Of a DNA stretch of 64,000 nucleotides, positions 7,491 to 41,133 are shown in pieces. Below the pieces are notes generated by a model, which was given only the letters and a program-made list of their open reading frames with translations, did not search any database and was not told the origin of the DNA. Numbering within the stretch: the stretch's first letter is position 1; every line of letters starts with the position of its first letter. The DNA is taken from IMG/VR virus record IMGVR_UViG_3300048922_000467, positions 1-64,000 of that record; one strand, written 5' to 3'. The position numbers and the translations under genes are program-made. Origin of the DNA: a virus.

Positions 7491-7527
7491 GTTGTTTTTC
7501 TTGTTGGCTTTTTATTTATTATAGCAC

Positions 7528-18352: not shown

Positions 18353-18742
18353 TCACCAAGGCTTTTGCGGCCAAAACACCGCGACTGGGTCAGGGGCTTC
18401 CGGGATATCGCGAAGGCCTTGCCGGTATTCTGCCAGAGCCAAGCGTGTGTTTTGGTCGACCTCGGTGCCGGCGATGAGAGCTTGGTCGTGAAGCATGCAG
18501 ACCCTGGCGTCAGCTTCCTGCAGTAGCTCTGCGCGTTTCTCTCTAATAGCTTTCATCAGAGATGCACGATTGGGCTCGAACACGAGCTGGCCATCGCGAA
18601 CGACTGGCACAAGGCCCTGGTTGAGGCTAGCAGCGATAGCCGGGCTCTCTGGGATTTCGAGGTATGGGAGTCCTGGCATGTCGGCAGAAGTGAAGCGGAA
18701 GACGTAGCCTGAGTCGTTGTAGTAAGCGCGCATAGTCATCAC
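18353..18742 (-). CDS. Tail fibre assembly chaperone
   Basis: R..R..LL.EAD...YRQ.LRDIPE......WP.KP. Confidence 0.85.
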   Translation of the reverse strand: MMTMRAYYNDSGYVFRFTSADMPGLPYLEIPESPAIAASLNQGLVPVVRDGQLVFEPNRASLMKAIREKRAELLQEADARVCMLHDQALIAGTEVDQNTRLALAEYRQGLRDIPEAPDPVAVFWPQKPW

Positions 18743-19956
18743 TTCTTGATGTAATAAGCCAAATTCTTTTCAGGGCGTTGAAGGTTCGGCAGGATGAGCG
18801 CGAAGCCAGGCCCGAAGTCTGCTGTATTCGTTTGCACGCTGCCGCTCTGACCCATAAGCGAGCCAGTTGCCCCCAGGCCACCAACAAAAGCGAACTCGTT
18901 GCTCAGGGGATCGAAATCAGCATCCGCATAGCCTGACATGACCGGAGCAGTGATCCAGGTGTTTCCACTGTCGAAGGAGATCATCGCAGGTGCGCTGGAC
19001 TCTGGGACTGCGATTAGCAAGCTATATCCAGTGCTGCTGTTGACTGCCACAAGTCGCTTTAGACTAAGTAGCGCTGGCAGAGTGATGGTATAGCTGTAGT
19101 CAAATTCAAGCGCTCGATACTCCAGTCTTGACCGGCTCTCGTAGATGAAGACCGCTCCGGCGCCGGCACTTTCAATGCACTCATGCTCGACGTCAGCAGC
19201 GATCTCAAGCATCAGAACAGTCGAAACCTGGCCATCCTCGAACATCAGCTTGTAGATGCCATGCTGACCGGCAATTGTGAGCTGAGCGTAAACATAGCCA
19301 GAACCAACCATCTTGATAGGCTTCGAAATGTCGGCAGGAATAGTGCCCGCTTTTATGAAGGAGGCTCCGTCATCTGCTTTGTAGATTGTCAGGACACCTG
19401 ACTCGACAACAGCCAGAAGCTCGTATCCATAGCTCGAATCAGCCGCACCGGCAATGCTTTCAAAGCTCGCGTTGAGTGCTACAACACCGATGTCTTGGAA
19501 AACCGTCCCTGCAGAACCGTAATAGATATGGCAGGCCGTTTTGAAGACAGACATGTTGTTCGGATAGCTGCTGGGCGTCGGGATACCCACCTGGAACACA
19601 TGCCAGTTACCTTCAGTTTTCGCCAATGTGGCTTGCCCAGAGCGGTACACCTGGGAGTAGAGATCAGTTCCAAACCTGGTCTCCGAGTTTTCATTCACCG
19701 AAACCCTGGCAGCCCCATACTCCTCGAAGTTCAGAGCAGTCTTGAGATCATCAAGGCCTTCGTCGTACAGATACGTTCCGTCGCACTCCAGTAGTCCTTC
19801 GTATGTTCCACGAGGTTTGAGCACGATGTCTCCGACCTTGACGGCTTTGGCCGCAACATCATAAACGCTCACTGACTCGGACGCGCCTGGCTTGTGAACG
19901 TGAAGCTTCATCGATACATCACCAGCCCAAGCTGGCAGTTCACTGATCGTTTTCAT
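18739..19956 (-). CDS. Fibre-like protein with split collar motif around a beta-propeller-like insert
   Basis: VGDIV...LLECDG at N-terminus, LPNL...YYIK at C-terminus, S.D.G.TW Asp-box. Confidence 0.65.
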   Translation of the reverse strand: MKTISELPAWAGDVSMKLHVHKPGASESVSVYDVAAKAVKVGDIVLKPRGTYEGLLECDGTYLYDEGLDDLKTALNFEEYGAARVSVNENSETRFGTDLYSQVYRSGQATLAKTEGNWHVFQVGIPTPSSYPNNMSVFKTACHIYYGSAGTVFQDIGVVALNASFESIAGAADSSYGYELLAVVESGVLTIYKADDGASFIKAGTIPADISKPIKMVGSGYVYAQLTIAGQHGIYKLMFEDGQVSTVLMLEIAADVEHECIESAGAGAVFIYESRSRLEYRALEFDYSYTITLPALLSLKRLVAVNSSTGYSLLIAVPESSAPAMISFDSGNTWITAPVMSGYADADFDPLSNEFAFVGGLGATGSLMGQSGSVQTNTADFGPGFALILPNLQRPEKNLAYYIKK

Positions 19957-20736: not shown

Positions 20737-21900
20737 TCAGTGGCCACCGAGCCTCAGCGCACGTTCAGGGCTCACGGTTTTCAAGCCGCAGAGGGTTTCA
20801 AATTTCCACTGAGTGGACTCGGTGCGAGGCTCGTACCAGCGAAGCATGCGGAGCGAGATTCCGGTGCGTGGGTCAGTCATCTGCGCAATGTTCACGCCAG
20901 CAGCGTCTTCTGGCACTTCGAGATTGCGGAAGGCGATCAGGAATGCGGACTTGGTGAAGGCCAGGTCGATCGGGTGATCGCCGAGGACGCTGACAGCAGA
21001 GCCAGAGGCGATGGCTTCCAGGACTGCCGGGTAGACTGGGACTGCAGAGCCTGCTGTGTCAGCAGTGACTACGAAAGTCTGATGGCTGCCAGCAACAGAG
21101 ATCACGTCGCCTTTCAGGAATGTCGCACCGTTCACTCCCGCCAGGGCAAGCGTAGTAGAGCCAGCTACTGCCTGTGCAGACAGGGTAATGCCGGCGTTTG
21201 CAGCTGCAGTGCCTGCGACGTGGTACGGAGCTTGAACGTCCGAGTACAGATCGAACCCATACTTGCGACCGATCAGGCCCTGGCTGACCACGTTCGCATC
21301 ACCGCTTTCGTTGATCTTCGAGAACTCAAGCAGCAGGTCAGCTTCAGTGTCCGAGGTCAGGACAATACTGCGACCGTTCAGGATTTTGCGGTTCTGCATT
21401 TCCTTCCGAGCGGCGATCAGATCGGACTTGTCGCGGCCAGCGGTCGAAGCCGGATTGCCCGAGATGTACGGGATGTCCTTGTACAAGCTGAACAGGTTTT
21501 TGTTGACGGTACGGCCAATGGCATCAACAGCAGCGGCAGCAGCAGACGGCAGAGTCAGCGAGTTCGCGTGCGCCAGGAACTCAGCGTCTTTCATCGCGAA
21601 CTGCTTGTACAAGTGCCGATCAAGCTTCACGTCGACTTTGCCGGCAGTGATGTCCTCAGACTGCGAGCCAGCCGAATCAGTTGGATGGTCTTCAGCATCC
21701 GAGAACTCGATCGGCTTTGCGATTCGGATCGTATCACCATGATTTTTTGCCTCATCGGCTGTATCGACGCTGACAAGATGGGGCATCGTCAGCTGGCCGT
21801 ATAGACGATCAATGGCCAGGGGCAGAATCACCTCTGTCATCAGGGCTTCAGTGTCATTGCCGTGGCGTACAAGAGCCAGGAGCGGGAGCATTGCAGTCAT
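20737..21900 (-). CDS. Major capsid protein (P22 coat-like family)
   Basis: GDTIRI..P, G.IGR.YGFD.Y, L.F.K.AF..A.R.L, G.K...PE.A motifs. Confidence 0.9.
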   Translation of the reverse strand: MTAMLPLLALVRHGNDTEALMTEVILPLAIDRLYGQLTMPHLVSVDTADEAKNHGDTIRIAKPIEFSDAEDHPTDSAGSQSEDITAGKVDVKLDRHLYKQFAMKDAEFLAHANSLTLPSAAAAAVDAIGRTVNKNLFSLYKDIPYISGNPASTAGRDKSDLIAARKEMQNRKILNGRSIVLTSDTEADLLLEFSKINESGDANVVSQGLIGRKYGFDLYSDVQAPYHVAGTAAANAGITLSAQAVAGSTTLALAGVNGATFLKGDVISVAGSHQTFVVTADTAGSAVPVYPAVLEAIASGSAVSVLGDHPIDLAFTKSAFLIAFRNLEVPEDAAGVNIAQMTDPRTGISLRMLRWYEPRTESTQWKFETLCGLKTVSPERALRLGGH

Positions 21901-22015
21901 TACTTCACCTGTTTTTGTTTTTTATTGGTGATTGATTTGGAGTTTGACGCGACATCAGCCCACGGGGCGTGATGGTTCCGGCACAACCGGAGGGGCCCGG
22001 AAGCCCCGAAGTGAA

Positions 22016-22786
22016 TCAGTTGATGACGATCTCGCCTGATGCTCTTTTTGCGAGCAAGGCTTTCTTTTCTTCTGCGCTTGCCGCGATCAAGGTGCGTTGC
22101 CATTCTGCAGTGCTGATGGCTTTTCCCGCTCCTGTGACGCCCCTGGAGCCGGAACCTGGCATTTGCTTGAAGTAGTGCGGTTTCGTTGCTGTGAGCCCGG
22201 AAATCCACTCGTCAGGTGTCAGAGGCCTGCCGTTTTTACCGATGGCGATGTTCCCGCTTGAGTCACGTGCTACGAGCTCCCCGGCGTCATTGAGCTGCCA
22301 AGTGTTGCCGGCAACGGACATCAGATCATCGAGCGCCGAGGGGTGGAAGAATTCATTTTTGAGCGCCACCTGGCCGATGCTTTGCTTGATCTGGAACTGC
22401 TTGAGCTTAAGTCTTTCGCCATCAACAGCTTTGCGAAGATCTTCTTTTTCGGCTTGCTCCGCTGCCAACTTCTCTTGCCAGGTGGCACTGTTGGCGTTGA
22501 CGCGCTTATCGAGCAGTGTTTGCAGATCCAGCTTGCCAGCTTTCAGAGCATCAAGATCGTCCTTCTCCTGAATGCCTGCTTCAAACGCCTTCATCCGCTC
22601 TGCCAAGGTTTTCTTCTCGTTCAGAAGATCGGCGTTTTTACTCTTTAGCGGAGTGACTTCTTTCTCTACGTGAGCTTTTAAGAAGTCTAGGAAGGCAGGG
22701 TTTTCCTGCAGGGCATTGAAGTCCAGTGGCGGAACTTCATCTTCGCCGAAGCGAATAAGGCTTACCAGCTTGTGCATCTGAAACAT
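22016..22786 (-). CDS. Capsid scaffolding protein
   Basis: Coiled coil, L..KN..LL.EKK, PHYF....GSG; directly upstream of capsid. Confidence 0.8.
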   Translation of the reverse strand: MFQMHKLVSLIRFGEDEVPPLDFNALQENPAFLDFLKAHVEKEVTPLKSKNADLLNEKKTLAERMKAFEAGIQEKDDLDALKAGKLDLQTLLDKRVNANSATWQEKLAAEQAEKEDLRKAVDGERLKLKQFQIKQSIGQVALKNEFFHPSALDDLMSVAGNTWQLNDAGELVARDSSGNIAIGKNGRPLTPDEWISGLTATKPHYFKQMPGSGSRGVTGAGKAISTAEWQRTLIAASAEEKKALLAKRASGEIVIN

Positions 22787-22874
22787 TTAGTCCCCCAAGG
22801 ACGTTGTTTTCTTATCGTTATGTCCTAATTATATCAATGCCAAACACACAAAGGGGGACAAATGCAAATATTTT

Positions 22875-23570
22875 TCAGGCTTTTTTCCGGGCATGGAATA
22901 GCTTGAGAAACTGCTGATCAGATGGCTTGAGCAAATTCAGTGCATTATAGAAAGACTGGCTCGGTACGAACTTGCCCGCCTGCGCTTTATATAGAATGTT
23001 GTGAACAAAGCCAGTGTCTAGCATCAGCCGCATAATCTCCATTGATGCCAGTTCTTCGTCTCCCTGACCGATAAACGGGACAACTTCATCCAACGACTCG
23101 AATGCTAGGTACAACTCCATCGCCGTGAGCTTTCGCTGCGGCTTCCGGCCAACTGACAGCTTGTGCAAATAGAACCTAACCAGGAGCATCCCCACATGAA
23201 ACTGGGAGTTCATCAGCGCAGCAGGGATCTGCTCGATCAACAGCTCATCTTGATGCTCCGCGAGTTGGTTCAACAAGCAACGCACAAGCTCGTAATCCCC
23301 TGAAATCGGAGCATTTCGCTGAGTTCCCAGCAGTACAGCCACGGGGCCAATCAGCGTCGCCAGCTCAAGCAGCATCTCCCGATAACCACCGTCCAGCGGC
23401 TTGCTTTTGCCATCAAACCCCAGGGCATGCAGGTGATCAGCGATGTCAGCGAGGAGCTGGACAGTGCCAGCTTGCAGCTCGTTTTTGTCCAGGTGATGGC
23501 GGATGCCCTGAAGGCCACGGAGGTTGCGAGCCTTGAAGTGTTGAAAGACCAGCTCAGCTGCTTCTGACAT
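22875..23570 (-). CDS. Hypothetical protein
   Basis: 231-aa Leu-rich ORF. Confidence 0.7.
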   Translation of the reverse strand: MSEAAELVFQHFKARNLRGLQGIRHHLDKNELQAGTVQLLADIADHLHALGFDGKSKPLDGGYREMLLELATLIGPVAVLLGTQRNAPISGDYELVRCLLNQLAEHQDELLIEQIPAALMNSQFHVGMLLVRFYLHKLSVGRKPQRKLTAMELYLAFESLDEVVPFIGQGDEELASMEIMRLMLDTGFVHNILYKAQAGKFVPSQSFYNALNLLKPSDQQFLKLFHARKKA

Positions 23571-23573
23571 ATC

Positions 23574-23921
23574 TCACCATTCATTGATTTGCCCGAGCAC
23601 CTCCCATGTGAGGGCATCAAGCGTGATTTTGTCGAACTCAGTGACTCGGAATTCGTACGTTGTGTGCCTAAACTTAAAGACTCCAGCGCTTAGCACGTAC
23701 TGAATCATGCACCTGAAAACCTCCCAGCAGGCATGGTCGCCAAGCTCTGCTTCGATGCCCCATTCTTGCAGGGCCTTCTGACGTTTCCCGCGAAAACAAT
23801 GTGACGCTCCTGAGTAAAAGTTTTTTGCCTTATCGAATCCACCGCAAAGATAAATGGCGCAAAGGTGTCGGGTGGATTCGTCGCAAGCCAGCACTGGCAC
23901 TACCAATGGATTAGCTGTCAT
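23574..23921 (-). CDS. Hypothetical protein
   Basis: 115 aa, A-rich leader. Confidence 0.65.
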   Translation of the reverse strand: MTANPLVVPVLACDESTRHLCAIYLCGGFDKAKNFYSGASHCFRGKRQKALQEWGIEAELGDHACWEVFRCMIQYVLSAGVFKFRHTTYEFRVTEFDKITLDALTWEVLGQINEW

Positions 23922-24061
23922 TTCGGGTGCTCATTCTTATTATTTTTATGCTTCATTATTAGCATTGAGCGGGGCTAAAATCAATATCATGGCACTTACT
24001 AATTAGCTCGGACACCACCGTCCTGGCGGATTTGGCTTGACCAGTAAGCAAGCCTGCGACA

Positions 24062-24077
24062 CTGTATATATGTCCAG
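24062..24077 (+). promoter_or_regulatory. LexA (SOS) box upstream of umuD
   Basis: CTGTATATATGTCCAG. Confidence 0.85.
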
Positions 24078-24100
24078 CAACCTGCCCGTAGTGCATCGCC

Positions 24101-24520
24101 ATGCTCACTCAACTCCCACATCTGTCGCTCAGTCAAATCCCGCTCCCCCTGCAGCTCTGCAAGCTCAAGGCCGGCTTTCCATCACCAGCCCTGGACTACG
24201 TCGAAGACAGACTGACGCTGAATGACGTGGTTAAGCTCGATCCCAGGTACTGCTATCTATGCCAAATTGATGGCGATTCCATGATCGACTACGGCATCCA
24301 GCCCGGAGATGTAGCAGTGATCAGCCGCAACGAGCCAGCCAGGCCTGGGAAGATTGTGGTCATCAGCATCGACGGTCAGAACACGCTTAAGCTGCTGTCT
24401 GAAGATGACCAGGGCCCGGTGCTCCTCGCCGGCAACAGCGCTTACAAGCCGATTCGGCCAGGTGACGGTGAGGAGTGGGTATTTCATGGGGTGCTGATCG
24501 CATGCACGCGCCTGTTCTGA
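24101..24520 (+). CDS. umuD: Pol V accessory subunit UmuD/RulA (S24 peptidase)
   Basis: AGFPSPA.DY, GDSM, K catalytic motifs. Confidence 0.92.
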   Translation: MLTQLPHLSLSQIPLPLQLCKLKAGFPSPALDYVEDRLTLNDVVKLDPRYCYLCQIDGDSMIDYGIQPGDVAVISRNEPARPGKIVVISIDGQNTLKLLSEDDQGPVLLAGNSAYKPIRPGDGEEWVFHGVLIACTRLF

Positions 24521-25812
24521 AGCCAGAATGGCGTCTGAGCGCAAATCAAAAGCGTGTGTACGCCTTGGTCGACTGCAATTCATTCTACGCAAGCTGTGAG
24601 CGGCACCCCCTTTGGCGCCCTGATCTTGCTGGGCTGCCGATAGTGGTGCTGTCGAACAACGATGGTTGCGTGATTGCTCGCTCCAAGGAAGCTAAGACCT
24701 TGGGGTACAAGATGGGTGACCCGTACTTCAAGATCCGCGACCAACTCGCCAACCAGGGCGTCCACGTATTCAGTTCGAACTACACGCTGTATGACGATCT
24801 CAGTAGCCGCGTGATGCTCACCCTGGCCGACTTCGCGAGCGAGCTGGAGGTGTATTCGATTGACGAAATGTTCCTCGATCTGACGGGCATGCGGGGCTAT
24901 CAGGTGATGGCCGAAGAGATGAAGGAGCGCGTGTTTCGATGGACTGGAATTCCCGTTGGCGTTGGGATCTCTACGACCAAGACCCTGGCGAAGCTCTCAA
25001 ACTGGGCTGCGAAAAACTGGAGAGGCCTTCCTGGTGTTGCAGTAGTACTTGACGATCAGCGGCACGAGCTGTTGCTCAAGCGTGCACCAATTGGGGAGGT
25101 TTGGGGGATCGGGCGTCGCTGGGCTGAGAAGCTGGAAGCCAAGGGCATCGTCACAGCCTGGCACTTGGCATGCGCGGACAACGAGGCTGTCGGTAGAGAG
25201 TTCAACGTCGTACTACAGCGGACTGCTCTAGAGCTCCGAGGCATCCCTTGCAATGATCTGGAGCTCCAGGCTCCGAAGAAAAAGCAAATCATCAGCTCAC
25301 GTGCGTTTGGAAGCCGGCAACAGGGGTGGAAACCAATTGAGCAGTCGATTGCCAGCTACGTTGCCCGCGCAGCTGAGAAACTCAGAGCTCAGGGGTCGGT
25401 TTGTCGGAAGATTGATGTTGGTCTCATTGTGAGGAAAGCCACGTCGGAGAGCTTCAGTGATGCGTACTCTTCAGCGACAGCCAGACTTCAGCAGCACACC
25501 GACGACACTCTCACGCTTCAAGGGGCGGCTGTTTCTTTGGCTAAGATAATCTTCGACGACAATGCAGTTTATGCAAAGTCCTCCGTGGCATTGAGCGAGA
25601 TCTGCCAGCCAGAAGACCTCACTACGGACATGTTCGCTGCTGCCAGCTCACAAAGCCCCAGAGCTAAGGTTCTCGATCAGATCAATGCCAAATTTGGCAA
25701 AGGCGCTCTGCGCTCAGCTACGACCATTGGCGACATGCAGTGGAGCATGCAACGTGGGCACCTGAGCCCTTACTACACTACGCGCCTGTCCGACCTGCCG
25801 AAGCTTCGGTAA
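24502..25812 (+). CDS. umuC: Y-family DNA polymerase V UmuC/RulB
   Basis: ALVDCNSFYASCE, VLSNNDGCVIARS, YSIDE, W.M.R..LSP.YTT. Confidence 0.95.
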   Translation: MHAPVLKPEWRLSANQKRVYALVDCNSFYASCERHPLWRPDLAGLPIVVLSNNDGCVIARSKEAKTLGYKMGDPYFKIRDQLANQGVHVFSSNYTLYDDLSSRVMLTLADFASELEVYSIDEMFLDLTGMRGYQVMAEEMKERVFRWTGIPVGVGISTTKTLAKLSNWAAKNWRGLPGVAVVLDDQRHELLLKRAPIGEVWGIGRRWAEKLEAKGIVTAWHLACADNEAVGREFNVVLQRTALELRGIPCNDLELQAPKKKQIISSRAFGSRQQGWKPIEQSIASYVARAAEKLRAQGSVCRKIDVGLIVRKATSESFSDAYSSATARLQQHTDDTLTLQGAAVSLAKIIFDDNAVYAKSSVALSEICQPEDLTTDMFAAASSQSPRAKVLDQINAKFGKGALRSATTIGDMQWSMQRGHLSPYYTTRLSDLPKLR

Positions 25813-25831
25813 AGCGTTTCTCTTAACCAAA

Positions 25832-26518
25832 TCACTTGCCCAGGTCAGCCCCGATTAGATAGTCAATCGACTCAAACTTCCCGGCATCCATTAGCCGTTG
25901 ACGAAGTACCTGCATAAACTCTTTGTCATTCTTCAAAAACTTGTCGCACTCAGAATCAGTTTGGCACTCATCCAGAATATCGGCACGTTCCGGATTAACA
26001 ACGCGATAGCGGCGAATGAATTCCTCACGCTTCTTATCATGAAAGCTCTGAATAAGTGACTTCATACTTCCTCCATAGATCATATCTTTAAACTTACCCA
26101 TGTACCTAAGGGAAAATTTCATCAGGGCTAAGTCATTTCTAGCGGACAGGCCCCAGTAGTACTCATCTGCCGCATTTTCTTTGACAATGAGAATCTTGTC
26201 TAGTCTAGAAACAAAGCCCTGCACCCAGGCAATGCCAGCAATCTCATTCCCGAGCTCATGAAACAGCAGGTCTTCGTCAGCAATCGATTCAACCAAAGCC
26301 CAGACCTTATAAAATCCTCGCTCGCGATAATAACTCTCCGGCAACGCCAGGAAGTTTGAGTACAAAACAACAATCAGATCGCGCTCAGACCTGTATTCAA
26401 GGCGCTCATAGATTACATAGCCATCTTCCGCTCTGAGCAACACTGGGAATACCCATTGCAGATATCTAACAAGCGACAGTCGCATTCTCGCTCCCAGTGG
26501 CTTTTTGAACATAGTCAT
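25832..26518 (-). CDS. Hypothetical protein (3rd of AT-rich trio)
   Basis: 228-aa ORF. Confidence 0.7.
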   Translation of the reverse strand: MTMFKKPLGARMRLSLVRYLQWVFPVLLRAEDGYVIYERLEYRSERDLIVVLYSNFLALPESYYRERGFYKVWALVESIADEDLLFHELGNEIAGIAWVQGFVSRLDKILIVKENAADEYYWGLSARNDLALMKFSLRYMGKFKDMIYGGSMKSLIQSFHDKKREEFIRRYRVVNPERADILDECQTDSECDKFLKNDKEFMQVLRQRLMDAGKFESIDYLIGADLGK

Positions 26519-26882
26519 TCAGGGCGCTGCAGGCTGCGTCGACATCGCTATTCTTAAGAGACCAGTAGGCTTTGGCCATAATTGCATCCAGGGCTTCATT
26601 GCGACCCAAGTCTTCAAAGAAAACTGTGTGTAGCAGATGCCAAAGAAACTCAACATCATCAATGTTTTTTTGCTCATCCGAAATACTGTGAGCGATGCTA
26701 CTGAGGCATTCAAATTCCCAATCCACATGAACTGTCGTCTCAGAGAACGAGTAAACCTGAGCGACATAATCAAAGAACTCAATGAAAGTGGCAAACTCGC
26801 ACTCATCGAAGTAGTATTTACTACCATCGAAACGGATCGTGGCTGGAGAACAGAATTTGATGATGTTTTGCAGGTACATCAT
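26466..26882 (-). CDS. Hypothetical acidic protein (2nd of trio)
   Basis: 138 aa, overlaps both neighbours. Confidence 0.65.
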   Translation of the reverse strand: MMYLQNIIKFCSPATIRFDGSKYYFDECEFATFIEFFDYVAQVYSFSETTVHVDWEFECLSSIAHSISDEQKNIDDVEFLWHLLHTVFFEDLGRNEALDAIMAKAYWSLKNSDVDAACSALNDYVQKATGSENATVAC

Positions 26883-27694
26883 AAGCCCAGCTCCGAGCCA
26901 AACATATATTCCCGCTGCTCAGCGCTCATCATTGCCATTCTGCCACGAAGAAAACCCATGTCCCCACTTAATAGTCGACGTAGCTCATCCTCACTTTCAC
27001 AAATCGAATACAGGTGATAAGCGTGAGGCCTGTCCAACTGAAGCTCTTTTATGATTAAAGGATGCATCAAATCAAAGATATCGTCATAGGCCTTTTTCTT
27101 ATCGATACCCAGACTCAACAGATCAGCAGAAAATCTTTCCCCGACATCCGCACTAGCATGAGCCGACTCATAATTCCCCGAAAGAATGCCAGCGATACAT
27201 TTAACCTGAGAAGTCCTGGAGGAATCGCTATCTCGCTCAGTAGTTAGGTATGTGAGCCAAAGCCTTCGAAGATGATCAAGCCTCTCTTCCCTAAGCATCC
27301 CTAAAAACCTGGAAACAAAGTCATTGGGACTGGTGGCGTTGAGAGCCGCAGTTGCGAACATGGGAGTAAAACTAAGAACAGGGCCATTCCAGATCTTGAA
27401 TTTAAAGCTCACAATAACTGCGACTTCAAGAAGCGAAGAGCAGTAACGATCTACAACACCATCTACTGTTTTCAATTTCAGCAGGTAATGACCACCCTGA
27501 AAGCTAAAGCCCCCGGTCATCGAGAATCTATCGTAGTCCCCAATTTGCTCGTTCAAGACTCGCTCAAGGAATTCGTGGCTCTCAGCCGAAATCCCCATCA
27601 GCCCCCTGGCTTTGGTAAACCATCTCCACGCCGCGACTTTTGGCTTCAAAAGCTTGAGTAGTAGCCTGTCTTTCGGAGTGATGAAGGTAAGCAT
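26879..27694 (-). CDS. Hypothetical protein (1st of trio)
   Basis: 271-aa ORF with upstream TTGCCA-N17-CATGAT promoter-like site. Confidence 0.7.
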   Translation of the reverse strand: MLTFITPKDRLLLKLLKPKVAAWRWFTKARGLMGISAESHEFLERVLNEQIGDYDRFSMTGGFSFQGGHYLLKLKTVDGVVDRYCSSLLEVAVIVSFKFKIWNGPVLSFTPMFATAALNATSPNDFVSRFLGMLREERLDHLRRLWLTYLTTERDSDSSRTSQVKCIAGILSGNYESAHASADVGERFSADLLSLGIDKKKAYDDIFDLMHPLIIKELQLDRPHAYHLYSICESEDELRRLLSGDMGFLRGRMAMMSAEQREYMFGSELGL

Positions 27695-27791
27695 GACCAG
27701 CTCTCAATATCATGGCAGTTATTGACAGATTGGCAATGGAGGGTAGGAATGTCAAGGGCCCAGCGGGGTGCCAGGCCATGGGGTGTGGGGG

Positions 27792-28067
27792 CTAGGCGGT
27801 TTTCAGGCGCTCCAGGCGTTCCTGGGCAATCCGGGCAAGGCAGGCATGAAACTCAGCCAGGCAAGCAGCGGCGCACTGCTGTTGCCATTTTGGGAGCTGC
27901 TTGAGATCAGGGCGATCAGCGGGTTTTCGAGTGTCTTGCTGAGCAAGTCTGAAGCACTCGTCTACACAAAAATCCTCGACCTTGGGAGCAACCTGAAAAA
28001 GGAAGTATGTGCCGGACGAATACTCAATTGCGGCCTTGGCGTCTGCGTAAATTTTGGTGATGTTCAT
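27792..28067 (-). CDS. Hypothetical protein
   Basis: Start MNITKIY after leader GCATAACAATAAGAGAG. Confidence 0.6.
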   Translation of the reverse strand: MNITKIYADAKAAIEYSSGTYFLFQVAPKVEDFCVDECFRLAQQDTRKPADRPDLKQLPKWQQQCAAACLAEFHACLARIAQERLERLKTA

Positions 28068-28137
28068 GAAGCGCTCTCTTATTGTTATGCCCTTGCATAC
28101 TGTCACTATGCAGGTGGAGCAAAAGAGAGCGCAACAC

Positions 28138-28836
28138 TTAATATGAGCCTTCTGCGCGCCAATTGAGGAACCGACACACACCCTCTATATCTGGATAAAT
28201 AGACTTTGAGGTAACACCGCAGCGCTCCAGGGTCATCAGGAAATCGACCTTGTCCTTACCCGCAATCACATACTCCTTCAGATACTTTTTGACTTCAGGG
28301 TTTCGTTCCAGGGGGACGAACTTCCCAGACTTTTCAGAAAACCTGTGGGCAGTAAAGTAGCCAGACTGCGCGATAATCCTATCGTTGCTAAGATTTGGGT
28401 TAATCACCCTGGTCTTTCGTTGGCTGAAGGGACTACCTTTGAGTGATGGCAGCATTAGCGAATGAGCTTCTAGTGTGTAGACATAGCAGTCATCCGTTCC
28501 CCTGGAGCTACAAGCAAAGTAGATTGCAGCCAGGGCATTCGAAGTCCAGTCCAACAGCCTGGTTTTCATTCCAAAATGCTGAGCAAGAACGAGCATATCC
28601 CAATCATTGTCAATGTCGACATAGCTGGGAATCATCGTCAGCCCGTGCCGCCTCAGATCAGCCAACATCGTTTTTTCGACTGCGGTTGTGTTGTTGGTGG
28701 GATCTTTCCGTGCGATACCAGGAAGCAGGTTGCCGCGTTTTGACTGCCCGCGAAACAGCACAGTCCCGCCCACCAGGTCATAACCGCTTAGACGATTGAG
28801 GAAATCCGGAACGTCCTTGATCGGAATTGAAGTCAT
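28138..28836 (-). CDS. FRG-domain protein
   Basis: LFRGQ, AQHFG..TRLLDWT, R..AQ.G.F. Confidence 0.9.
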   Translation of the reverse strand: MTSIPIKDVPDFLNRLSGYDLVGGTVLFRGQSKRGNLLPGIARKDPTNNTTAVEKTMLADLRRHGLTMIPSYVDIDNDWDMLVLAQHFGMKTRLLDWTSNALAAIYFACSSRGTDDCYVYTLEAHSLMLPSLKGSPFSQRKTRVINPNLSNDRIIAQSGYFTAHRFSEKSGKFVPLERNPEVKKYLKEYVIAGKDKVDFLMTLERCGVTSKSIYPDIEGVCRFLNWRAEGSY

Positions 28837-28838
28837 GA

Positions 28839-29219
28839 TTACGCCTGCAGCCAGCTTTCGACTTCCTGAGCCCCATGCTCCAATTTCCAGGCCTTCAAGG
28901 TGCTGTGATTACCGCCTTTCGTTTCGACGACTTCGTTTGTGTGCGGGTTCACATAGCGTTTAACTGCACGAGGCGCACGCGGCCCCTTACGCCCATCAAC
29001 CTTGCCACCCGCTGCAACCACAGAAGCCCCAGCAGCCTTGGGATCGAGGATGGCAATAACGTTGCGCAGAGACATGCCGTACTCCGCCAGCAGCTTGCGC
29101 AGTTTGTCTTCAAATTCCAGCTCCCTCTGCAGGGCTTCGCTGCCTTTGAGAGCTTCCAGGGCCTGAAGCTGTTCGGCGATCTGGCGCTCTAGGGCTCTGT
29201 ATTCTGCGGCTTTTGACAT
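28839..29219 (-). CDS. MvaT/MvaU-family H-NS-like nucleoid protein
   Basis: MSK.AEYR..E, Y.NPHT.EVVETKGGNH..LK.WK. Confidence 0.92.
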   Translation of the reverse strand: MSKAAEYRALERQIAEQLQALEALKGSEALQRELEFEDKLRKLLAEYGMSLRNVIAILDPKAAGASVVAAGGKVDGRKGPRAPRAVKRYVNPHTNEVVETKGGNHSTLKAWKLEHGAQEVESWLQA

Positions 29220-29338
29220 TAGTGGTGCTCCGTTTTAGTAAATGCCATGAAATATACATAGGTTGTAGCCGCTGTCAAATTCAAGCCATGACTACATATT
29301 GGACGAGCCGAGAATAGATTCATTCGGGCATTGCCTTA

Positions 29339-29354
29339 CTGTATGGGCATACAG
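29339..29354 (+). promoter_or_regulatory. LexA (SOS) box
   Basis: ta-CTGTATGGGCATACAG-ta. Confidence 0.9.
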
Positions 29355-29398
29355 TATATTTAAGTCAGTAGCCAATAAAAACAACAAGAGAAAAAGAC

Positions 29399-29593
29399 AT
29401 GCAAGGCACGATCATTATCAAGAATGGCTTATTCAACAACGCCTTCGAAATTCGAGACTGCGAGATAACCCTTAGCGATACAGCGAGCGTCAGCGAAGAT
29501 TGCGATTCGAACAAGAAATATGCTGAATTGACATACCGAGGCGACTCATTTCTGCATAAGTGTGTTGAGGATGTGAAAGCGCGCTTCCAGTAG
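29399..29593 (+). CDS. SOS-controlled small hypothetical protein
   Basis: 64 aa after LexA box; terminator at about 29610-29635. Confidence 0.7.
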   Translation: MQGTIIIKNGLFNNAFEIRDCEITLSDTASVSEDCDSNKKYAELTYRGDSFLHKCVEDVKARFQ

Positions 29594-29674
29594 CCATCAG
29601 ATCACAGAGAGGCTCACCCGCGAGCCTTTTGTTTTCAAATCCACCTGCAGCACATAATAATAAGAGAGAAGACA

Positions 29675-30121
29675 GTGATCTACAGCATTCACAAGAACGC
29701 CAGCCTATTTCATATAGTCGTTAAAGGCCGAACGATGCTTCTGATGGAGCTTTTTATGGGCTCAGACCACCAACACAAACTTGGCAATGGTTATCGATTC
29801 ATGGTTGCTGCTAAGCGACTTTTGGGAGATGGCTGCCTGAAAACGATAGCCAGCAAAAGGGCTGAGGGCGGTGCTCTAGTGCCCTACAAGGATACGTATA
29901 AGTACGTGGGCTCAGGAGTCTATGAGTTTTACAACGAAGTTAATGAAGAGCTCGTCAGGGCCTTTTTTGACGATAGGATTGGCATGGATGACCTGCGTTG
30001 CATCAAAGGGGACTACTTAGCCGCCCACATCGTTAAGCAAATTGACAGCCAAATGCCTGGCTACAGGGAAAAGTACGCCATGCGAATGTCGAGAGGAGCC
30101 TTGGGCTGGGTTTTCGAATGA
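29675..30121 (+). CDS. Hypothetical protein
   Basis: 148 aa; leader GCAGCACATAATAATAAGAGAGA; terminator at 30126-30146. Confidence 0.7.
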   Translation: MIYSIHKNASLFHIVVKGRTMLLMELFMGSDHQHKLGNGYRFMVAAKRLLGDGCLKTIASKRAEGGALVPYKDTYKYVGSGVYEFYNEVNEELVRAFFDDRIGMDDLRCIKGDYLAAHIVKQIDSQMPGYREKYAMRMSRGALGWVFE

Positions 30122-30217
30122 GCATGCCCCCGCCAGGGGGCTTTTTGTTTACAAACAGTTTTTCTTAACCAAAACACATGCGCAACCCAACCCTGCCTCA
30201 GGGCCGCATTTGAGTAT

Positions 30218-31117
30218 CTACTCCTTTTCTGCGGATCTTTTCTTTGCATCCTCCAGAATGCCGGGGACGTGCAATGCTACGAAAAGGAGAAAGGAGAAGG
30301 CTTTCATACTGTTTATTTCGGTGCCGTAGTCTGAAACCTCCCCATGCATGACCTGATGACGATTTAGGGCGTCAAAAACCTTACCAGTTTCGCGAACCTT
30401 TGCGTTACGGGCTCCCTGGCTTTTCAGGATATCGAGCTCATGTAACTCCAGCGCTGGAAGCAGACTGCCCATAGTTTTTGCGTCAGCACCAATTTGAGTA
30501 CTCAGCCATTGACTTCCCTTGATGAGATTCTGCCCTTTCACCTTGTCCATCGCTGAAGGGATGCCTGTCACTTCAGAAAAGATGCCATCTGCCTGAGCCA
30601 AGAATACAGGAATGCTCAGCGAGTAGCCGGCTGGAGCGAGGCTTCTGTGAGCGTTAATTGCCGCATGAATGGCAGTTGTGCGAGACGGATATTTTTCTGC
30701 CAGCAGCTCCGAGTAGTAGTCCCAATAATCGTTGTAGTAGGCCATCAATATTGTATCGATGTCACTAGCGCTCTTGGCTTCCCGAATGCTCTCCGTAAGC
30801 TCCATCACATCCTGAAATCCGCCTTGCCAGTTAAAAAACCAACCCTCACGGGAAGCTACTTTCATGGCTTGGCTTGAGGCCTCAGGGAAGCTCTCCAGGC
30901 GCTCCTGCACATGCTTCCAATCAACGCTAGCAACCCATTGGATCACTGGCGCAATCTGGGTGCCTATATCAGACAACCATTTGCCAAAAGACAGCAGGGA
31001 CTCCTGGATGTGAGGGGCGTGCTTTTGGAGTGCCTGAGCCAATACCTCCGCAATCCGCTGATTTTGGAGGTTTATGGCTTCATCGATGACATTTTTCTCG
31101 GGCATGAGGGCGCTCAC
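30218..31117 (-). CDS. Hypothetical protein with C-terminal HEPN-like Rx4H
   Basis: LNRHQVMHG and SIPVFLAQADGI. Confidence 0.65.
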   Translation of the reverse strand: MSALMPEKNVIDEAINLQNQRIAEVLAQALQKHAPHIQESLLSFGKWLSDIGTQIAPVIQWVASVDWKHVQERLESFPEASSQAMKVASREGWFFNWQGGFQDVMELTESIREAKSASDIDTILMAYYNDYWDYYSELLAEKYPSRTTAIHAAINAHRSLAPAGYSLSIPVFLAQADGIFSEVTGIPSAMDKVKGQNLIKGSQWLSTQIGADAKTMGSLLPALELHELDILKSQGARNAKVRETGKVFDALNRHQVMHGEVSDYGTEINSMKAFSFLLFVALHVPGILEDAKKRSAEKE

Positions 31118-31340
31118 CTACCTGGCGGGGCCTTTATTTAGCCACAACCAGTCGCCGCAGGCGATGAGCTCGCATTTCTCGCTACAGATACCCCAGGCCG
31201 CAGCTGGATCAACATGCAAAGCCTGGGGCCTGTGCTGCACGATTTTGCAGTCAAAAAGCTTTTTGAAAGTCTACCGCGCTGACCAGGGCAAGGAGCACCT
31301 GGCCTGGGTTTCTGAGCTCGGGCTGGCGGGGGATCTGGGG

Positions 31341-32117
31341 CTATGATGCCTGGCGCTGCATCCAATAGATCGACGCCTCAACAACTTCCAGAACTCGAAG
31401 CTTGAGCGTCTGTTCCATCAAGTTCATGTCTCGTTTGTACTTTTCAAAAGTAGCTACGCATGCTGGATCAAGGCGCTGCTGCTCGCTCAGCTCGTTGCCG
31501 AGGTTTTCAGGGAATGGGTGCAAGGGCCATGAACCATACTGATCTGCCAGCAGCCGCACTTTGTCTGTGAGAACCAGCCAGTCGAGCGCATGGTCAGGTG
31601 ATATTGACGCTGCCAACGTAAGGCCGTGCTGGAAATCCGGATACCTGGAGTGAGCGGTTTCCATTGCAAATTTGAGCTTGAGAATTTGAGCCCCCGTAAC
31701 AATCGAGCTCTTGTGGGCCTTCAAGTTGTCCAGAGCCAGGATGGATGGGTCGATCGATGTGATCGGTGTTTCGTGACCGAAAACCCGAGTGCGCTCGTAG
31801 GCGTCAATGACGGAGGCTAGGATCAGATTCAAAGGCGTTAGCGTCAGCGTCTCCCTTCGGTAGCTGGGTATGAGCTCGATCACTACATAGAACACATACG
31901 CAGAAAACAGCCCGACAAGAAGGTCACTGCTGACACTACCGGTGGCCTCGGCAGAGAGAAAGGCAGCAATCTTGCCCCCTTTCAGCCAGGGCCAAACCTC
32001 CAGCTGGAGGTTGATCAGGATGATGAGACCCAGAACAGTGAGAGCAGCTGCTAGTAGCCACTTTTCCCTCGTTTCACGCCATACCCACATGACCCAACTC
32101 TCCCTGAAATCCGGCAA
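31341..32117 (-). CDS. Two-TM membrane-anchored hypothetical protein
   Basis: Two N-terminal hydrophobic helices plus a soluble domain. Confidence 0.65.
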   Translation of the reverse strand: MPDFRESWVMWVWRETREKWLLAAALTVLGLIILINLQLEVWPWLKGGKIAAFLSAEATGSVSSDLLVGLFSAYVFYVVIELIPSYRRETLTLTPLNLILASVIDAYERTRVFGHETPITSIDPSILALDNLKAHKSSIVTGAQILKLKFAMETAHSRYPDFQHGLTLAASISPDHALDWLVLTDKVRLLADQYGSWPLHPFPENLGNELSEQQRLDPACVATFEKYKRDMNLMEQTLKLRVLEVVEASIYWMQRQAS

Positions 32118-32194
32118 GGATACCGGCAGGGAGGCCGTTTGACATCAAAACATGGCGTGGCCCATCTCTCCTGCGAGCGACGGCTCACAGGACA

Positions 32195-33142
32195 TCATTC
32201 GCCAATTGCGGTTTGGGCGGTCTTTTTCTCTAGGCTGCACAACATAACGATTGCAGATGCGGTCATGTGCAAAACGTATGCAGCGATCTCAGGCTCAACT
32301 TCTGAGACCTCCGAGCCTTGACCGTGCCCACCCTCCTTATTACGGATGGTTGGAACACTGCTTTCCAACAAGGTTGAGAGAGCATTCAGGTGGTTCTGGT
32401 GATACGACGGCAGGAAGTTATTAGCCAGGAGTACAGCCAGAAGCCTTTTAGCTGGTGAGGTCTTATCGTACTCCCACCCTCGAAGCTCCAGCACCACCTT
32501 GATGGTACTTTCAAAGGCCTTTAGTGCATCATTCAAGGCTTCTTTGAGGTTGCTATGCCGATAGTGCTCATATGCGCCAAGAAACTCATCTCTCGGGCCT
32601 GCGTATTCCGCTTGATTCAGAAAGCTTATTGCTGGCTTGACTGCTTCAGCGTGAAGAAACTCGGAGTCTATTCTAAGAACTCTTCCATCATTTATCTCGT
32701 ACCCCTTGCCATGCTCTTTGAATCGCGTGTTTAACTCGGAAACACACTCGTCAATGTAAGCGCCCGTATCCTCTTTGGGATATCGATAGGTATACGATTT
32801 ATCTCGGTAAGATTCCGCGATTACGAAGCAGAGTTCAATAGCATCAAGAACTCGATCAATGTCCCGTTCGATTGAAATGAACTGACCCAGCTCATCCATC
32901 ACTGTTGACCGAGCATGGAGACCTGTCACCAGCTTGTAGACCCCATATTCCCGCCGAAGCACTTCGCAAATGCTTCCGTAATTACGCTCCTGCTCATTAC
33001 GATCTTGAATGCCAAGTACATCGTCGATCACATAGCATATCTGAGCACGAAGGTTGGCATTGAAGTCGTCGTACGTGTAGACATCGGGTTCCAGACCCAG
33101 CTCACGCTTCCTACGTTTTGAATACAAATCGATGACTGGCAT
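32195..33142 (-). CDS. AbiJ-like / Abi_C (HEPN) abortive infection protein (STM4504-like)
   Basis: SKR....PDVY.YD...LR.Q N-terminus; KAFEST.K, RNKEGGHG C-terminus. Confidence 0.8.
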   Translation of the reverse strand: MPVIDLYSKRRKRELGLEPDVYTYDDFNANLRAQICYVIDDVLGIQDRNEQERNYGSICEVLRREYGVYKLVTGLHARSTVMDELGQFISIERDIDRVLDAIELCFVIAESYRDKSYTYRYPKEDTGAYIDECVSELNTRFKEHGKGYEINDGRVLRIDSEFLHAEAVKPAISFLNQAEYAGPRDEFLGAYEHYRHSNLKEALNDALKAFESTIKVVLELRGWEYDKTSPAKRLLAVLLANNFLPSYHQNHLNALSTLLESSVPTIRNKEGGHGQGSEVSEVEPEIAAYVLHMTASAIVMLCSLEKKTAQTAIGE

Positions 33143-33204: not shown

Positions 33205-34533
33205 TCAGGCAGCGACGTACTCAGTGGCCAGCCTGTCCGCGTTGTCTTCGATACTGAAGTCGTTGCCCATGATCCCACGGCGCTTGAGCTCGCGAAGGTA
33301 CTCGTATTGGCTCAGGTCGCCGTTGGCCCTGGCGGTAGCAAGCGCGGTGAGCTCCTGGGCATTGGCGTTGATGCCGTAGTCAGTGTTGATGTCCACCTGG
33401 AAATCAGCGTTCGACACACGGCTGAAACGGGCGAGCATTCCGAACACAGTCTTGAGGGCAGACGCTGTGGCCGTGGCCATCGAAGCAATCTGGTTGTTGG
33501 TGTCCGAGGCGTTTAGAGAACGGCCAGTCGCTGTTTCGACCACACCAGTGTTTTGGAGCATCTCGTTGCCATGTGACGCCATCAGCACCTCCAAGTCTTG
33601 AAGGCTGTCCCTGCCGGCAGTGATCGCAGCGCCCGTGTGCTCAACAAACTTGAGATCTGCACCCTCGGCACTGCACATGATCGCGCTATCGACACCGATC
33701 TTGACGACTGTGCCCTCAGGAATTCCTTTGCCGAACAGGATTGGCACCCTGGCAACGTGCAGGATGTTGTCCTGGTCGGACTGGGACTGCCAGTGCTTGA
33801 TGTTCATGTGCGCCAGATCCTTGAGCGGAGGCTCGCAGAACAATGTGCCCCTGGTATCAGCTGGGTTTGAGTGAATCGCCACCACCGGAATCTCCGAGAG
33901 CCCGAAATCCCTCCAGGCCTCGATCTGCACGTAGTCGGCACCGTCAGACTCTTGCCAGATTGCCCACAGCACTTTGCCGTTGACCTTCCTGAACACGCGC
34001 ACCCGGCAGACCGTTTTCTCGCCCCACTCACCATCCTCGACGGTTGCCTTCTCCGAAATCCTGATCTCACGCAACTTATCATCCTCGTCGAGCTTGTAGC
34101 CCAGGATGTCATCACCGCTGAGCCAGTAGGCATAGGGCTGCCCGCCGCCGATAGGTGCATCAACACAGAGGAAGGACGACCCGTTCCACAGCGCATCCTG
34201 GAACGCCATCGCCGCCAGCGCACTCACCGAAGTCCCTTTACCGTCGATGTTGCTGCTGAACAGCTCTGCCAGCTCAGGGTGAGATTCCGAAACCACAGCT
34301 ACAGGTCTTGAGAAAGGCTTTGCAGACAAACTCTTTACGACCCTGGCCATGCGGTTGTTCAGGTACGTCCTGCATAGCCGTTTTTTGTACGACTCCGGGG
34401 TCTCGCCTGGCTCGTGCGGGAGAAATTCCTGGCCAGCAGCGCGCATTGCATCAGTGCCGCCCCGGAGTGCTCGGATGGCCCTGCGATCTGAGAAGTATTT
34501 GGAGCAGATTTCGGACTTGTCTTGTACTTTCAC
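33205..34533 (-). CDS. Portal protein (DUF4055-like)
   Basis: L.GGT.AMRAAG..LP....E....Y..RL, PPL.DLA..N..H.Q..SD. Confidence 0.9.
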
Positions 34534-34563: not shown

Positions 34564-36081
34564 TTAACCCATTATCCCATGAGAGACAGTGGTAACTGGG
34601 CGCTTCCAGGTCAGGCGATATGCCAGCGCATCCCATGCATGATCGTCAGGCCCTTTGGCCACGGCATCGAGTTGATCGTCGTCACGCTGCAGGAATGGCA
34701 GGGTCTTAATCAGGAATTTCGCAGCAGGGAAAAAGTATATGTGAGGGTTGGATGGATCTTGTACCTTGGTGGCCTGCAGCCGCCCAAACATGAGCTGCGC
34801 AGAGGTCACACGGGAGCCGGGAGACTTGTCAGAGTTCACAAAGTCGATGCCCTCAGCCTTCAAGTCCTTGGCCACTGTGGGTGCATTTCCCTGATCGACC
34901 TTTGAGCCGTTGTAGATCTGATTATCTGCTGGCCCTGGAGCGACTTTTTTGTGAGCACTCAACACCCCAGTCAGCAGCTTTTCCTCTTTCTGTTTGAGGC
35001 GTGCCCCGATCTGGCGAGCAGAGAGGAATAACCCAGCATCCGGGCGTGCCTGCTTGCCAGTTTTGGGATCGATTTCGGTGCCGTAATCCTCGCCAATCAC
35101 AACCAGGCTGCCCTTCGGAGGACAGAATTCACGATTCCCCACTCGCACAGATTCCCCGTTACTCTCGGCAACCCAGAGACAACAAAAGGGGGTGCTCTGC
35201 CCAAAGTCGAAGCACCGATCGACCTTCCAGTCAACAGGGATCTGGAACGGATCAAGCAGCAGGTTTTGAGACCAAACGGGGCCAAACATCGCTCCTGTAT
35301 CGACGGCTTCCCAGTCGCCCTCCAACCATGCAGCCCTTTTGGCCGGATCGGTGAGCTGGGCCAGGTAGTTTCGGATGTAGCCGTCGTCGATGTAGTGATT
35401 CTGAAAGATGGTGCCGAACAGTGCTGTGCGTTGCCTGGTGCCATCGGCGTTGTATGTGATCTCGCCGGGCTTGCGCCCCTCAATGAAGCGCTCATACACC
35501 CAGGTTCTGCCGGCGCCCCAGGGGTTTGTGGTGCTGCGGACTTGCAGAGGTGGCGGGAGTGGTTGTGATGGGGTCGGTTGATACGCAGTACGGAGCGTCG
35601 ACATCATTGCTTCGTAGACTTCGATCGTTGACCACGTTGCCAATTCGTCAAAGCCGATGAAGGCGTACTGGTGACCGTGGAATTTGCCGTCGTACTCCCG
35701 GACGTGTTTGATGTGATTGAAGATCAGCACCTCGCCCGTGGGGAAAGTCCATGAGTGCTTGGTCTCGTTCCATACGGCACCAGGGAAGATCCTGGGAATG
35801 AGCATGCCTGCAGTCTTCACCAGGTCAGCAAGGTGCTTGAACTCTTTCCGCAAGATGATCCCGCGCCAGTACGCACCCCAACCTTTTCCCACGTGCTGCA
35901 GGAACGCCATGATGAGTGCATCAGATTTGCCATTGCCCCTAGAGCCATGGAACAGCACTTCCCGAGTGAGGTACTGAGGCTGACCCAGCACAAGGAACAT
36001 CGACTGCGACCCAGGCAAGGGCTTCCATATGATGTTCTGCACAGCACGTGCAAGCGGACGGATCGCCTGGAAAGCACTCAT
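34564..36081 (-). CDS. terL: Terminase large subunit
   Basis: GSRGNGKS Walker A, IGFDE, TTNP, DFG, DHA.DAL.Y; start reassigned to MSAFQ (ATGA overlap). Confidence 0.93.
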   Translation of the reverse strand: MSAFQAIRPLARAVQNIIWKPLPGSQSMFLVLGQPQYLTREVLFHGSRGNGKSDALIMAFLQHVGKGWGAYWRGIILRKEFKHLADLVKTAGMLIPRIFPGAVWNETKHSWTFPTGEVLIFNHIKHVREYDGKFHGHQYAFIGFDELATWSTIEVYEAMMSTLRTAYQPTPSQPLPPPLQVRSTTNPWGAGRTWVYERFIEGRKPGEITYNADGTRQRTALFGTIFQNHYIDDGYIRNYLAQLTDPAKRAAWLEGDWEAVDTGAMFGPVWSQNLLLDPFQIPVDWKVDRCFDFGQSTPFCCLWVAESNGESVRVGNREFCPPKGSLVVIGEDYGTEIDPKTGKQARPDAGLFLSARQIGARLKQKEEKLLTGVLSAHKKVAPGPADNQIYNGSKVDQGNAPTVAKDLKAEGIDFVNSDKSPGSRVTSAQLMFGRLQATKVQDPSNPHIYFFPAAKFLIKTLPFLQRDDDQLDAVAKGPDDHAWDALAYRLTWKRPVTTVSHGIMG

Positions 36082-40635: not shown

Positions 40636-40652
40636 TTCAATTTCTCTCTGTA

Positions 40653-41116: not shown

Positions 41117-41133
41117 GAAGAGAGAGCATCACA

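Follow-up and report, generated by a model that had tools for sequence, protein, structure and literature searches.

Why do the coat protein and the scaffolding protein of a phage head begin with the same short peptide? The question is raised by a siphovirus-like Pseudomonas prophage in the IMG/VR virus record IMGVR_UViG_3300048922_000467, of which we analysed positions 1 to 64,000 (hereafter the window, meaning this whole stretch of 64,000 nucleotides). A first-pass annotation of this DNA had noticed a leader common to the predicted capsid and scaffold, and had compared it with the Staphylococcus aureus phage 80alpha, where the host protease Prp is reported to cut both the capsid protein and the scaffolding protein between F and A (PMC5744158). 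It had proposed an analogous leader-cleavage pathway in a phage of Gram-negative bacteria, in need of a different protease. Here we find that the leader is a conserved signal which co-varies between capsid and scaffold, and that a small gene wedged between the two terminase genes encodes a putative papain-fold cysteine peptidase, most similar in predicted structure to C39 peptidase domains. The leaders, their conservation and co-variation, the modelled fold, the catalytic residues and the co-occurrence of leader and peptidase are matters of observation; that this phage-encoded C39-type peptidase removes the leader from both coat and scaffold is, in our judgement, probable.

A leader shared by coat and scaffold

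The coat protein belongs to the P22 coat family. It matches PF11651 (P22_CoatProtein) with an E value of 3.4e-22 and 79.3 bits (cut-off 24) over residues 22-386, the match beginning at profile position 9, and the major head protein profile phrog_283 with an E value of 1.6e-67, residue 21 falling on profile position 8. The scaffold belongs to phrog_206 (head scaffolding protein; E 1.9e-29, residues 15-242), and no Pfam family matched it. Its gene lies directly upstream of the coat gene and stops 115 nucleotides (nt) ahead of the capsid start.

The capsid begins with MTAMLPLLALVRHGND and the scaffold with MFQMHKLVSLIRFGED (coordinates of the leaders in table 1). Both open reading frames (ORFs) and the alignment of their N-termini proved to be as first described: the leaders are identical at 7/16 positions (1, 4, 7, 10, 12, 14 and 16) and conservative at positions 8, 9 and 11. 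Each consists of ~13-15 residues, a hydrophobic stretch ending in [Phe/His/Tyr/Cys]-Gly, after which acidic or amide residues follow.

This likeness is beyond chance. Among the 2926 pairs drawn from the N-termini of 77 non-nested window ORFs, the coat-scaffold pair has the second highest BLOSUM62 score, the top-scoring pair arising from an unrelated inverted DNA repeat (see below). Shuffling of scaffold residues 2-16 reproduced the observed score in 2/100,000 cases. The motif stands at the N-terminus of the coat and the scaffold only among the window ORFs, and in 65 related loci its other matches were confined to lipoprotein signal peptides and truncated scaffolds. Read by eye, the two leader nucleotide sequences of the window are unlike each other, which indicates that selection acts on the peptides.

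Conservation and co-variation of the leaders

Lack of conservation among homologous capsids and scaffolds had been named as a finding that would refute the leader as a signal, and the motif proved to be conserved. Of 57 coat homologues 40 keep the leader, namely all those with an intact N-terminus at an identity of at least 47%; the others are three N-terminally truncated gene calls and 14 sequences at <=38% identity which have no leader. The scaffold homologues carry it in 95/95 cases (94 by a strict pattern and one, P0149, by eye). The glycine that ends the leader is particularly well kept. In the coat it occupies residue 14 in 30/40 sequences and residue 13-14 in 38/40, and in the scaffold residue 14-15 in 87/94, G14 being the sole invariant residue in the first ~55 of 20 aligned scaffolds.

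A coat homologue was present in 37 loci (3 genomes and 34 viral contigs), and both N-termini could be read in 31 fetched loci and the window, which together form the co-variation set (n = 32). Four leader types occur, ..R[FH]G, ..A[FY]G, ..VCG and ..MFG, each of them found on both proteins of a phage. In clade A, to which the window belongs, the coat reads L-x-A-L-V-R-[HF]-G-N-D and the scaffold L-V-S-L-I-R-F-G-E-D; the corresponding patterns are L-V-V-L-x-A-[FY]-G-N-D and L-V-V-F-K-A-[FY]-G-E in clade B, K-E-L-F-V-C-G-E-N and E-L-F-V-C-G-E in clade C, and H-L-L-M-F-G and F-L-P-M-F-G in clade D (locus L041, with a coat 33% identical). Two positions ahead of the Gly, coat and scaffold carry the same residue in 32/32 loci (R/R 14, A/A 15, V/V 2, M/M 1), and in clade B the residue preceding the Gly is F/F or Y/Y in 15/15. 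Over the seven residues preceding the Gly, cognate pairs share 4.8/7 and cross-clade pairs 2.0/7. The leader is thus a conserved signal co-varying between capsid and scaffold. That two proteins keep one changing signal argues that one common partner reads it.

In the alignments the leader appears as an add-on without a counterpart in distant coat proteins. The leaderless coat homologues (<=38% identity), which include two complete viral genomes, start with Met-(Ala/Ser/Pro/Gly)-Asn, the Asn aligning with N15, and the first position of the Pfam and PHROG coat profiles corresponds to approximately residue 14. Both coat and scaffold are leaderless in the isolated Vibrio phage KF4, and in the phage collection the coat relatives of this group are all below 30% identity. 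Since leaderless coats begin at the equivalent of G14-N15, removal of the leader would give an ordinary P22-type coat start, and the expectation that the mature capsid begins near G14 fits this alignment.

A candidate leader peptidase between terS and terL

The most plausible common partner is encoded between the genes for the small and large terminase subunits, terS and terL. The peptidase gene overlaps the end of terS by 26 nt and the ATG of terL by 4 nt. The longest terL ORF (622 amino acids (aa), reaching to 36432) includes a spurious 117-codon 5' extension from a GTG, and the peptidase gene lies underneath in another frame; the PHROG terL matches start at residue 134-147 of this ORF. Annotation software biased toward long ORFs may overlook the peptidase gene. 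In clade C and in the compact clade D locus, an ORF of 152-155 aa with a Q-x5-C motif at its start likewise lies between terS and terL.

The protein is a member of phrog_31365 (E 1.8e-80), a family of unassigned function. Q4, D9, C10, H97 and D108 are invariant in 18 peptidase sequences with 26-89% identity, and the catalytic order Gln (oxyanion hole), Cys, His, Asp is present. The catalytic pattern is intact in 28/28 peptidase loci, strictly so in 27, the remaining one (L072) differing by a non-catalytic G-to-D alone. A confident AlphaFold2 model was obtained, with a predicted local distance difference test (pLDDT) of 88.3 and a predicted template-modelling score (pTM) of 0.83. The top ten Foldseek hits of this model are all C39 peptidase domains (PCAT1, LahT150, ComA; E 1.6e-4 to 9.5e-4). 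VIA-align superposes it on the ComA peptidase domain with a Z of 12.7 and a root-mean-square deviation of 2.6 A over 115-117 residues, and on C39 domains overall with Z 11.8-12.7 and 2.6-2.8 A over 113-118 residues. On this model the placement in the papain-fold clan is firm, with C39 only the best-matching family. The ORF is stand-alone, with no fusion to an ABC transporter, and at the putative site F, H, Y or C precedes the Gly, so that there is no Gly-Gly. When the peptidase was modelled together with residues 1-45 of the scaffold, without control runs, the median score was 0.30 against a mark of 0.32, which counts neither for nor against binding.

Leader and peptidase occur together. The peptidase was found in 28/32 leader-bearing records, the other four being without terL or cut within it, and both leaders were present in 3/3 additional records in which the peptidase is accompanied by a coat gene. 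It was found in none of five leaderless relatives, two of which are complete genomes with terminal repeats, and a search of the phage collection, where close records may be missing and no isolated phage of this group was seen, gave no peptidase match.

The family extends well beyond these prophages. A profile search of 1.84 billion representatives returned 982 relatives (clusters) at E <=1e-3, mostly of 120-200 residues, and the nearest Atlas clusters are 57-100% viral. Of the distant family members scanned against Pfam, 10/10 list Peptidase_C39 (PF03412), 2/10 of them above the cut-off (22 bits). A related terL was found among the distant relatives in L148 only, where the coat region is off the contig, and no P22-type coat was detected in five distant-relative records. 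P0171 and P0174, each used alone as a query, gave no match. A 400-genome sample of the class yielded three peptidase-family matches; the homologue in genome G406 adjoins a probable integrase and housekeeping genes (read by eye from ORF translations), away from head genes.

Other proteases

Prp (PF04327) has 0 matches in the provirus record, and in three Pseudomonas genomes with related prophages none was detected above the cut-off (best E 0.155), the controls being detected in 6 genomes. Prp was accordingly rejected as the leader protease. With Prp absent above the cut-off from the provirus record and from 3/3 Pseudomonas genomes, and with a strong phage-encoded candidate at hand, the earlier claim that a protease other than Prp is needed gains support. 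Peptidase_S78 and S49 gave no match in the 86-kb record. Its sole ClpP match, at ~67 kb and beyond the window, is part of a fusion with a second prophage's coat; ClpP was found in 0/5 related near-complete records and was also rejected as the head protease. A Pfam and PHROG scan of 29 ORFs revealed no protease family, the T4-type S77 family not being among those searched.

The interval between portal and scaffold was considered as the site of a protease gene, and this was dismissed: Pfam and PHROG gave AbiJ-like, MvaT-like, FRG and UmuDC genes besides unknowns, and no protease. One ORF of this interval had been a protease candidate in its own right. It is Cys/His-rich, encodes 115 aa (23574-23921), lies two genes upstream of the scaffold and has 29-47% identity across clades A and B. 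This ORF was dropped; it was undetected in clades C and D and matched no Pfam family even at E 10 and none in PHROGs.

Proposed head-assembly route and its rivals

We propose that coat and scaffold are both synthesised with an N-terminal leader of ~13-15 residues, and that this leader most likely marks the two proteins for recognition and cleavage by a phage-encoded, stand-alone C39-type peptidase of papain fold. The enzyme would be made from the small gene translationally coupled between terS and terL, and thus be expressed with the terminase genes. It would bind the hydrophobic stretch and cut at the invariant Gly of both proteins during head assembly, and the trimmed coat would then start where leaderless P22-type coats do. 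By C39 and papain logic the cut may fall after the Gly, and we lean modestly toward this option. P1 would then be Gly and P2 the aromatic residue, which fits the general preference of papain-fold enzymes for bulky hydrophobic side chains at P2. Alternatively, by analogy with the site of 80alpha between F and A, the cut might fall before the Gly, which would then be the counterpart of the Ala or Ser heading leaderless coats. Trimming could delay assembly or coordinate the folding of both partners, or it might be dispensable. The leader-cleavage pathway suggested by the first-pass annotation is therefore upheld in part: a conserved, co-varying add-on leader, the failure to find Prp and a candidate protease speak for it, while the cleavage itself, its execution by this peptidase and at the Gly bond, and its effect on assembly are what we infer.

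Several observations weigh against this proposal. In canonical C39 substrates Gly, Ala or Ser precedes the last Gly, unlike the bulky aromatic residue or Cys found here. The window peptidase has no Pfam match even at E 10, two homologues match PF03412 only at E 0.053 and 0.098, and a profile of 18 peptidases against PDB sequences returned nothing significant (best E 0.098, to unrelated proteins). Two other papain-fold proteins, PeiR and phytochelatin synthase, differ from the C39 domains in score by no more than 1 Z. Furthermore, the leader-bearing phages appear to be one group with a common terS-peptidase-terL order, so their co-occurrence is not phylogenetically independent, and one gain or loss could explain both leader and peptidase. 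Distant relatives of the peptidase occupy other contexts, and a crude N-terminus scan of 47 of their viral loci brought up no shared leaders, only signal peptides and repeats. In 80alpha, moreover, cleavage is described as dispensable (PMC5744158).

The last point leads to a different reading, in which the leader, as an assembly signal common to both proteins, acts uncut, through a common chaperone, the portal or nucleation complex, the other of the two proteins or control of folding, and the peptidase has some other substrate, for instance a host, defence or virion protein. Co-variation demands one common binding partner, not necessarily a protease, and distant members of the peptidase family lie away from head genes. 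For 80alpha the scaffold N-terminal sequence is reported to be essential, and mutants with uncleavable coat and scaffold to be viable (PMC5744158). We nevertheless consider an uncut signal unlikely. An invariant Gly closes the leader at the very point where leaderless coats begin, as is typical of a removable propeptide, and P22-type coats that lack this segment assemble all the same. The peptidase encoded nearby has its catalytic residues intact in all 28 loci, and it is found wherever the leaders are.

Cleavage of the leaders might also be the work of a host protease, the leaders mimicking the N-terminus of a host protein and the phage peptidase being unrelated. The precedent is Prp, with its cut between F and A in the coat and scaffold of 80alpha (PMC5744158), and, like that site, the leaders have an aromatic residue beside a small one. 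Besides the lack of Prp above its cut-off in the genomes and the record searched, however, the leader differs between clades infecting the same genus, as is easily understood of a signal that co-evolves with an enzyme of the phage and hardly of one read by a single conserved enzyme of the host; with Prp as the host protein searched for, we see little likelihood in a host protease. As to a chance match or an annotation artefact, with the true start downstream, for example at capsid Met21, the Pfam and PHROG coat profiles match only from residues 21-22, and one database entry, P0011, is called from Met21. Against this stand the rarity of shuffles attaining the observed score, a leader reading frame kept at the protein level down to 33% coat identity, and Shine-Dalgarno-like sequences kept before codon 1 of both genes, with none comparable before the internal ATG at coat codon 21. 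A downstream start, named earlier as a possible refutation, is disfavoured by these sequences, and we regard an artefact as very improbable indeed. We return, then, to the phage-encoded peptidase as the preferred agent of leader removal.

Comparison with known systems

The principle is known from 80alpha, where a common N-terminal signal of coat and scaffold is trimmed by a cysteine protease; here the enzyme would be of another class and encoded by the phage, the site is a different one and the hosts are Gram-negative. Both systems have a common coat/scaffold motif with an aromatic beside a small residue, and neither has a prohead protease gene between portal and coat. In 80alpha the enzyme is the host's Prp, whereas here the candidate is phage-encoded and of papain/C39 fold; the site lies between F and A there and at [F/H/Y/C]-G here, and cleavage is proven there and predicted here. 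According to the report on 80alpha, Prp also matures ribosomal protein L27, of which the phage motif is a copy, and the scaffold leader is essential and its removal dispensable (PMC5744158).

C39 domains are described as removing N-terminal leaders that end in Gly-Gly (PMC10318531). Those of peptidase-containing ABC transporters such as ComA, PCAT1 and LahT150, which act on the leaders of bacteriocins and quorum-sensing peptides, are the best structural matches to the phage peptidase, and they share with it the order Gln...Cys...His...Asp, a length of ~140 residues and a short N-terminal leader ending in Gly as substrate (a putative one in the phage). The spacing of the catalytic residues also, we take it, resembles that of ComA. 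Unlike these domains, the phage protein is stand-alone and cytoplasmic, has no ABC transporter and stays below the PF03412 threshold, and its putative substrates are large structural proteins rather than exported peptides, with an aromatic residue or Cys instead of Gly before the last Gly.

In phage T4, similar short N-terminal capsid-targeting sequences on several internal head proteins are removed at head maturation by the phage prohead protease gp21. This is a serine protease of a different fold, and the T4 tag directs cargo into the prohead core; here, in contrast, it is the coat and the scaffold that bear the tag. P22 assembles without proteolysis. The window prophage shares with it the coat family (PF11651) and a separate scaffolding protein encoded just upstream, but the leader and the peptidase are an addition in one sub-group, the leaderless relatives fitting the P22 pattern. 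To our knowledge, where tailed phages mature their heads by proteolysis, the enzyme is a serine protease of the HK97, T4 or ClpP type, the host Prp used by 80alpha being the notable exception.

Full-text searches of the literature found no description of such a head-assembly route in phages of Gram-negative bacteria. Where C39 peptidases are named in phage genome papers, it is merely as annotations in the passages concerned (PMC6893657, PMC9915841). We put at about even the chances that the prophage represents a new class of phage head-maturation protease, stand-alone, C39-type and terS-terL coupled, reading a co-evolving [aromatic]-Gly leader on a P22-type coat and scaffold. If so, a C39-type phage peptidase acting on a common coat/scaffold leader would be a further independent solution to head maturation, and would account for the gain of a processing step by P22-type heads, whose assembly normally involves no proteolysis. 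Leader-dependent processing of coat and scaffold would then have arisen independently in Gram-positive phages, with the host's Prp, and in Gram-negative phages, with a C39 peptidase of their own. It would also provide a testable function for phrog_31365, possibly for a large viral family of small peptidases, and could give many phage 'hypothetical proteins' their first function. The clade-specific pairs of leader and enzyme would offer a natural system for the co-evolution of protease and substrate specificity.

Genomic context of the head module

The leader-bearing genes form part of the head module of the prophage, all genes of which are on the minus strand (table 1). Near-identical database proteins carry Pseudomonas names (plecoglossicida, juntendi and putida).

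Table 1. Features of the head module and its surroundings, in gene order; positions are those of the window.
Feature	Position	Strand	Remarks
Helicase	38446-40713	minus	first of the head-module order
Endonuclease, then RuvC-like resolvase	between helicase and terS	minus	
terS (terminase small subunit)	36490-37020	minus	phrog_4102, E 1.4e-35
Stand-alone C39-like (papain-fold) cysteine peptidase, 145 aa	36078-36515	minus	candidate leader peptidase
terL (terminase large subunit)	34564-36081	minus	true start ATG 36081 (MSAFQ...)
Portal protein	33205-34533	minus	phrog_145, E 5.9e-102; DUF4055
Accessory genes, ~10 kb	between portal and scaffold		
Shine-Dalgarno-like GGGGG (CCTTGGGGG; TGGGGG)	22792-22796	minus	upstream of scaffold codon 1; kept in clades A, B and C
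Scaffold leader, codons 1-14 (MFQMHKLVSLIRFG)	22745-22786	minus	
Head scaffolding protein, 256 aa	22016-22786	minus	phrog_206
Shine-Dalgarno-like AGGTGA	21905-21910	minus	upstream of capsid codon 1; same in clade A loci
Capsid leader, codons 1-14 (MTAMLPLLALVRHG)	21859-21900	minus	
Major capsid (coat) protein, 387 aa	20737-21900	minus	PF11651, phrog_283
Tape-measure-sized ORF, 922 aa	7528-10296		end of tail genes; judged by size and position alone

The accessory region (22875-33142) sits in the middle of the head module, from portal to scaffold, and its content varies among related prophages. It includes an AbiJ-like gene (32195-33142, with AbiJ_NTD4 and DUF7014), an MvaT-type silencer (28839-29219), a gene for an FRG-domain protein (28138-28836) and a plus-strand pair (24101-25812) that is umuD/umuC-like by eye. 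It appears to be a hot spot where defence and moron genes collect. In the same interval, clade B prophages (L025 at 7516-8067, L034, L035, L038 and others) carry on the opposite strand an ORF of ~183 aa, whose N-terminus resembles by eye a lipoprotein signal peptide (...LAAC-G-E-S) and which is likely a further moron of this hot spot.

After the coat gene and two small ORFs, and before the remaining tail genes, a 405-aa ORF is paired with a tail-fibre-assembly-like gene (18353-19956; PF16778 and several tail fibre assembly PHROGs). This is an unusual site for fibre genes, and the pair is kept in clades A-C. A 99-nt inverted repeat (arms 40653-40751 and 41018-41116, 78% complementary, 266 nt between them) spans the starts of a divergent pair of ORFs, the helicase-like one (38446-40713, minus) and another at 41056-42414 (plus). 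Because the repeat covers both 5' ends, the two ORFs match at 12/16 of their first residues; it may be a regulatory or recombination site of the prophage early region. Finally, the same 86-kb provirus record contains in tandem, at ~65.9-69.2 kb (locus L167) and beyond the window, a second prophage unrelated to the first; after its portal gene comes one for a 683-aa fusion of ClpP protease and coat. The right part of the window, from ~44 to 64 kb, probably belongs to this second prophage.

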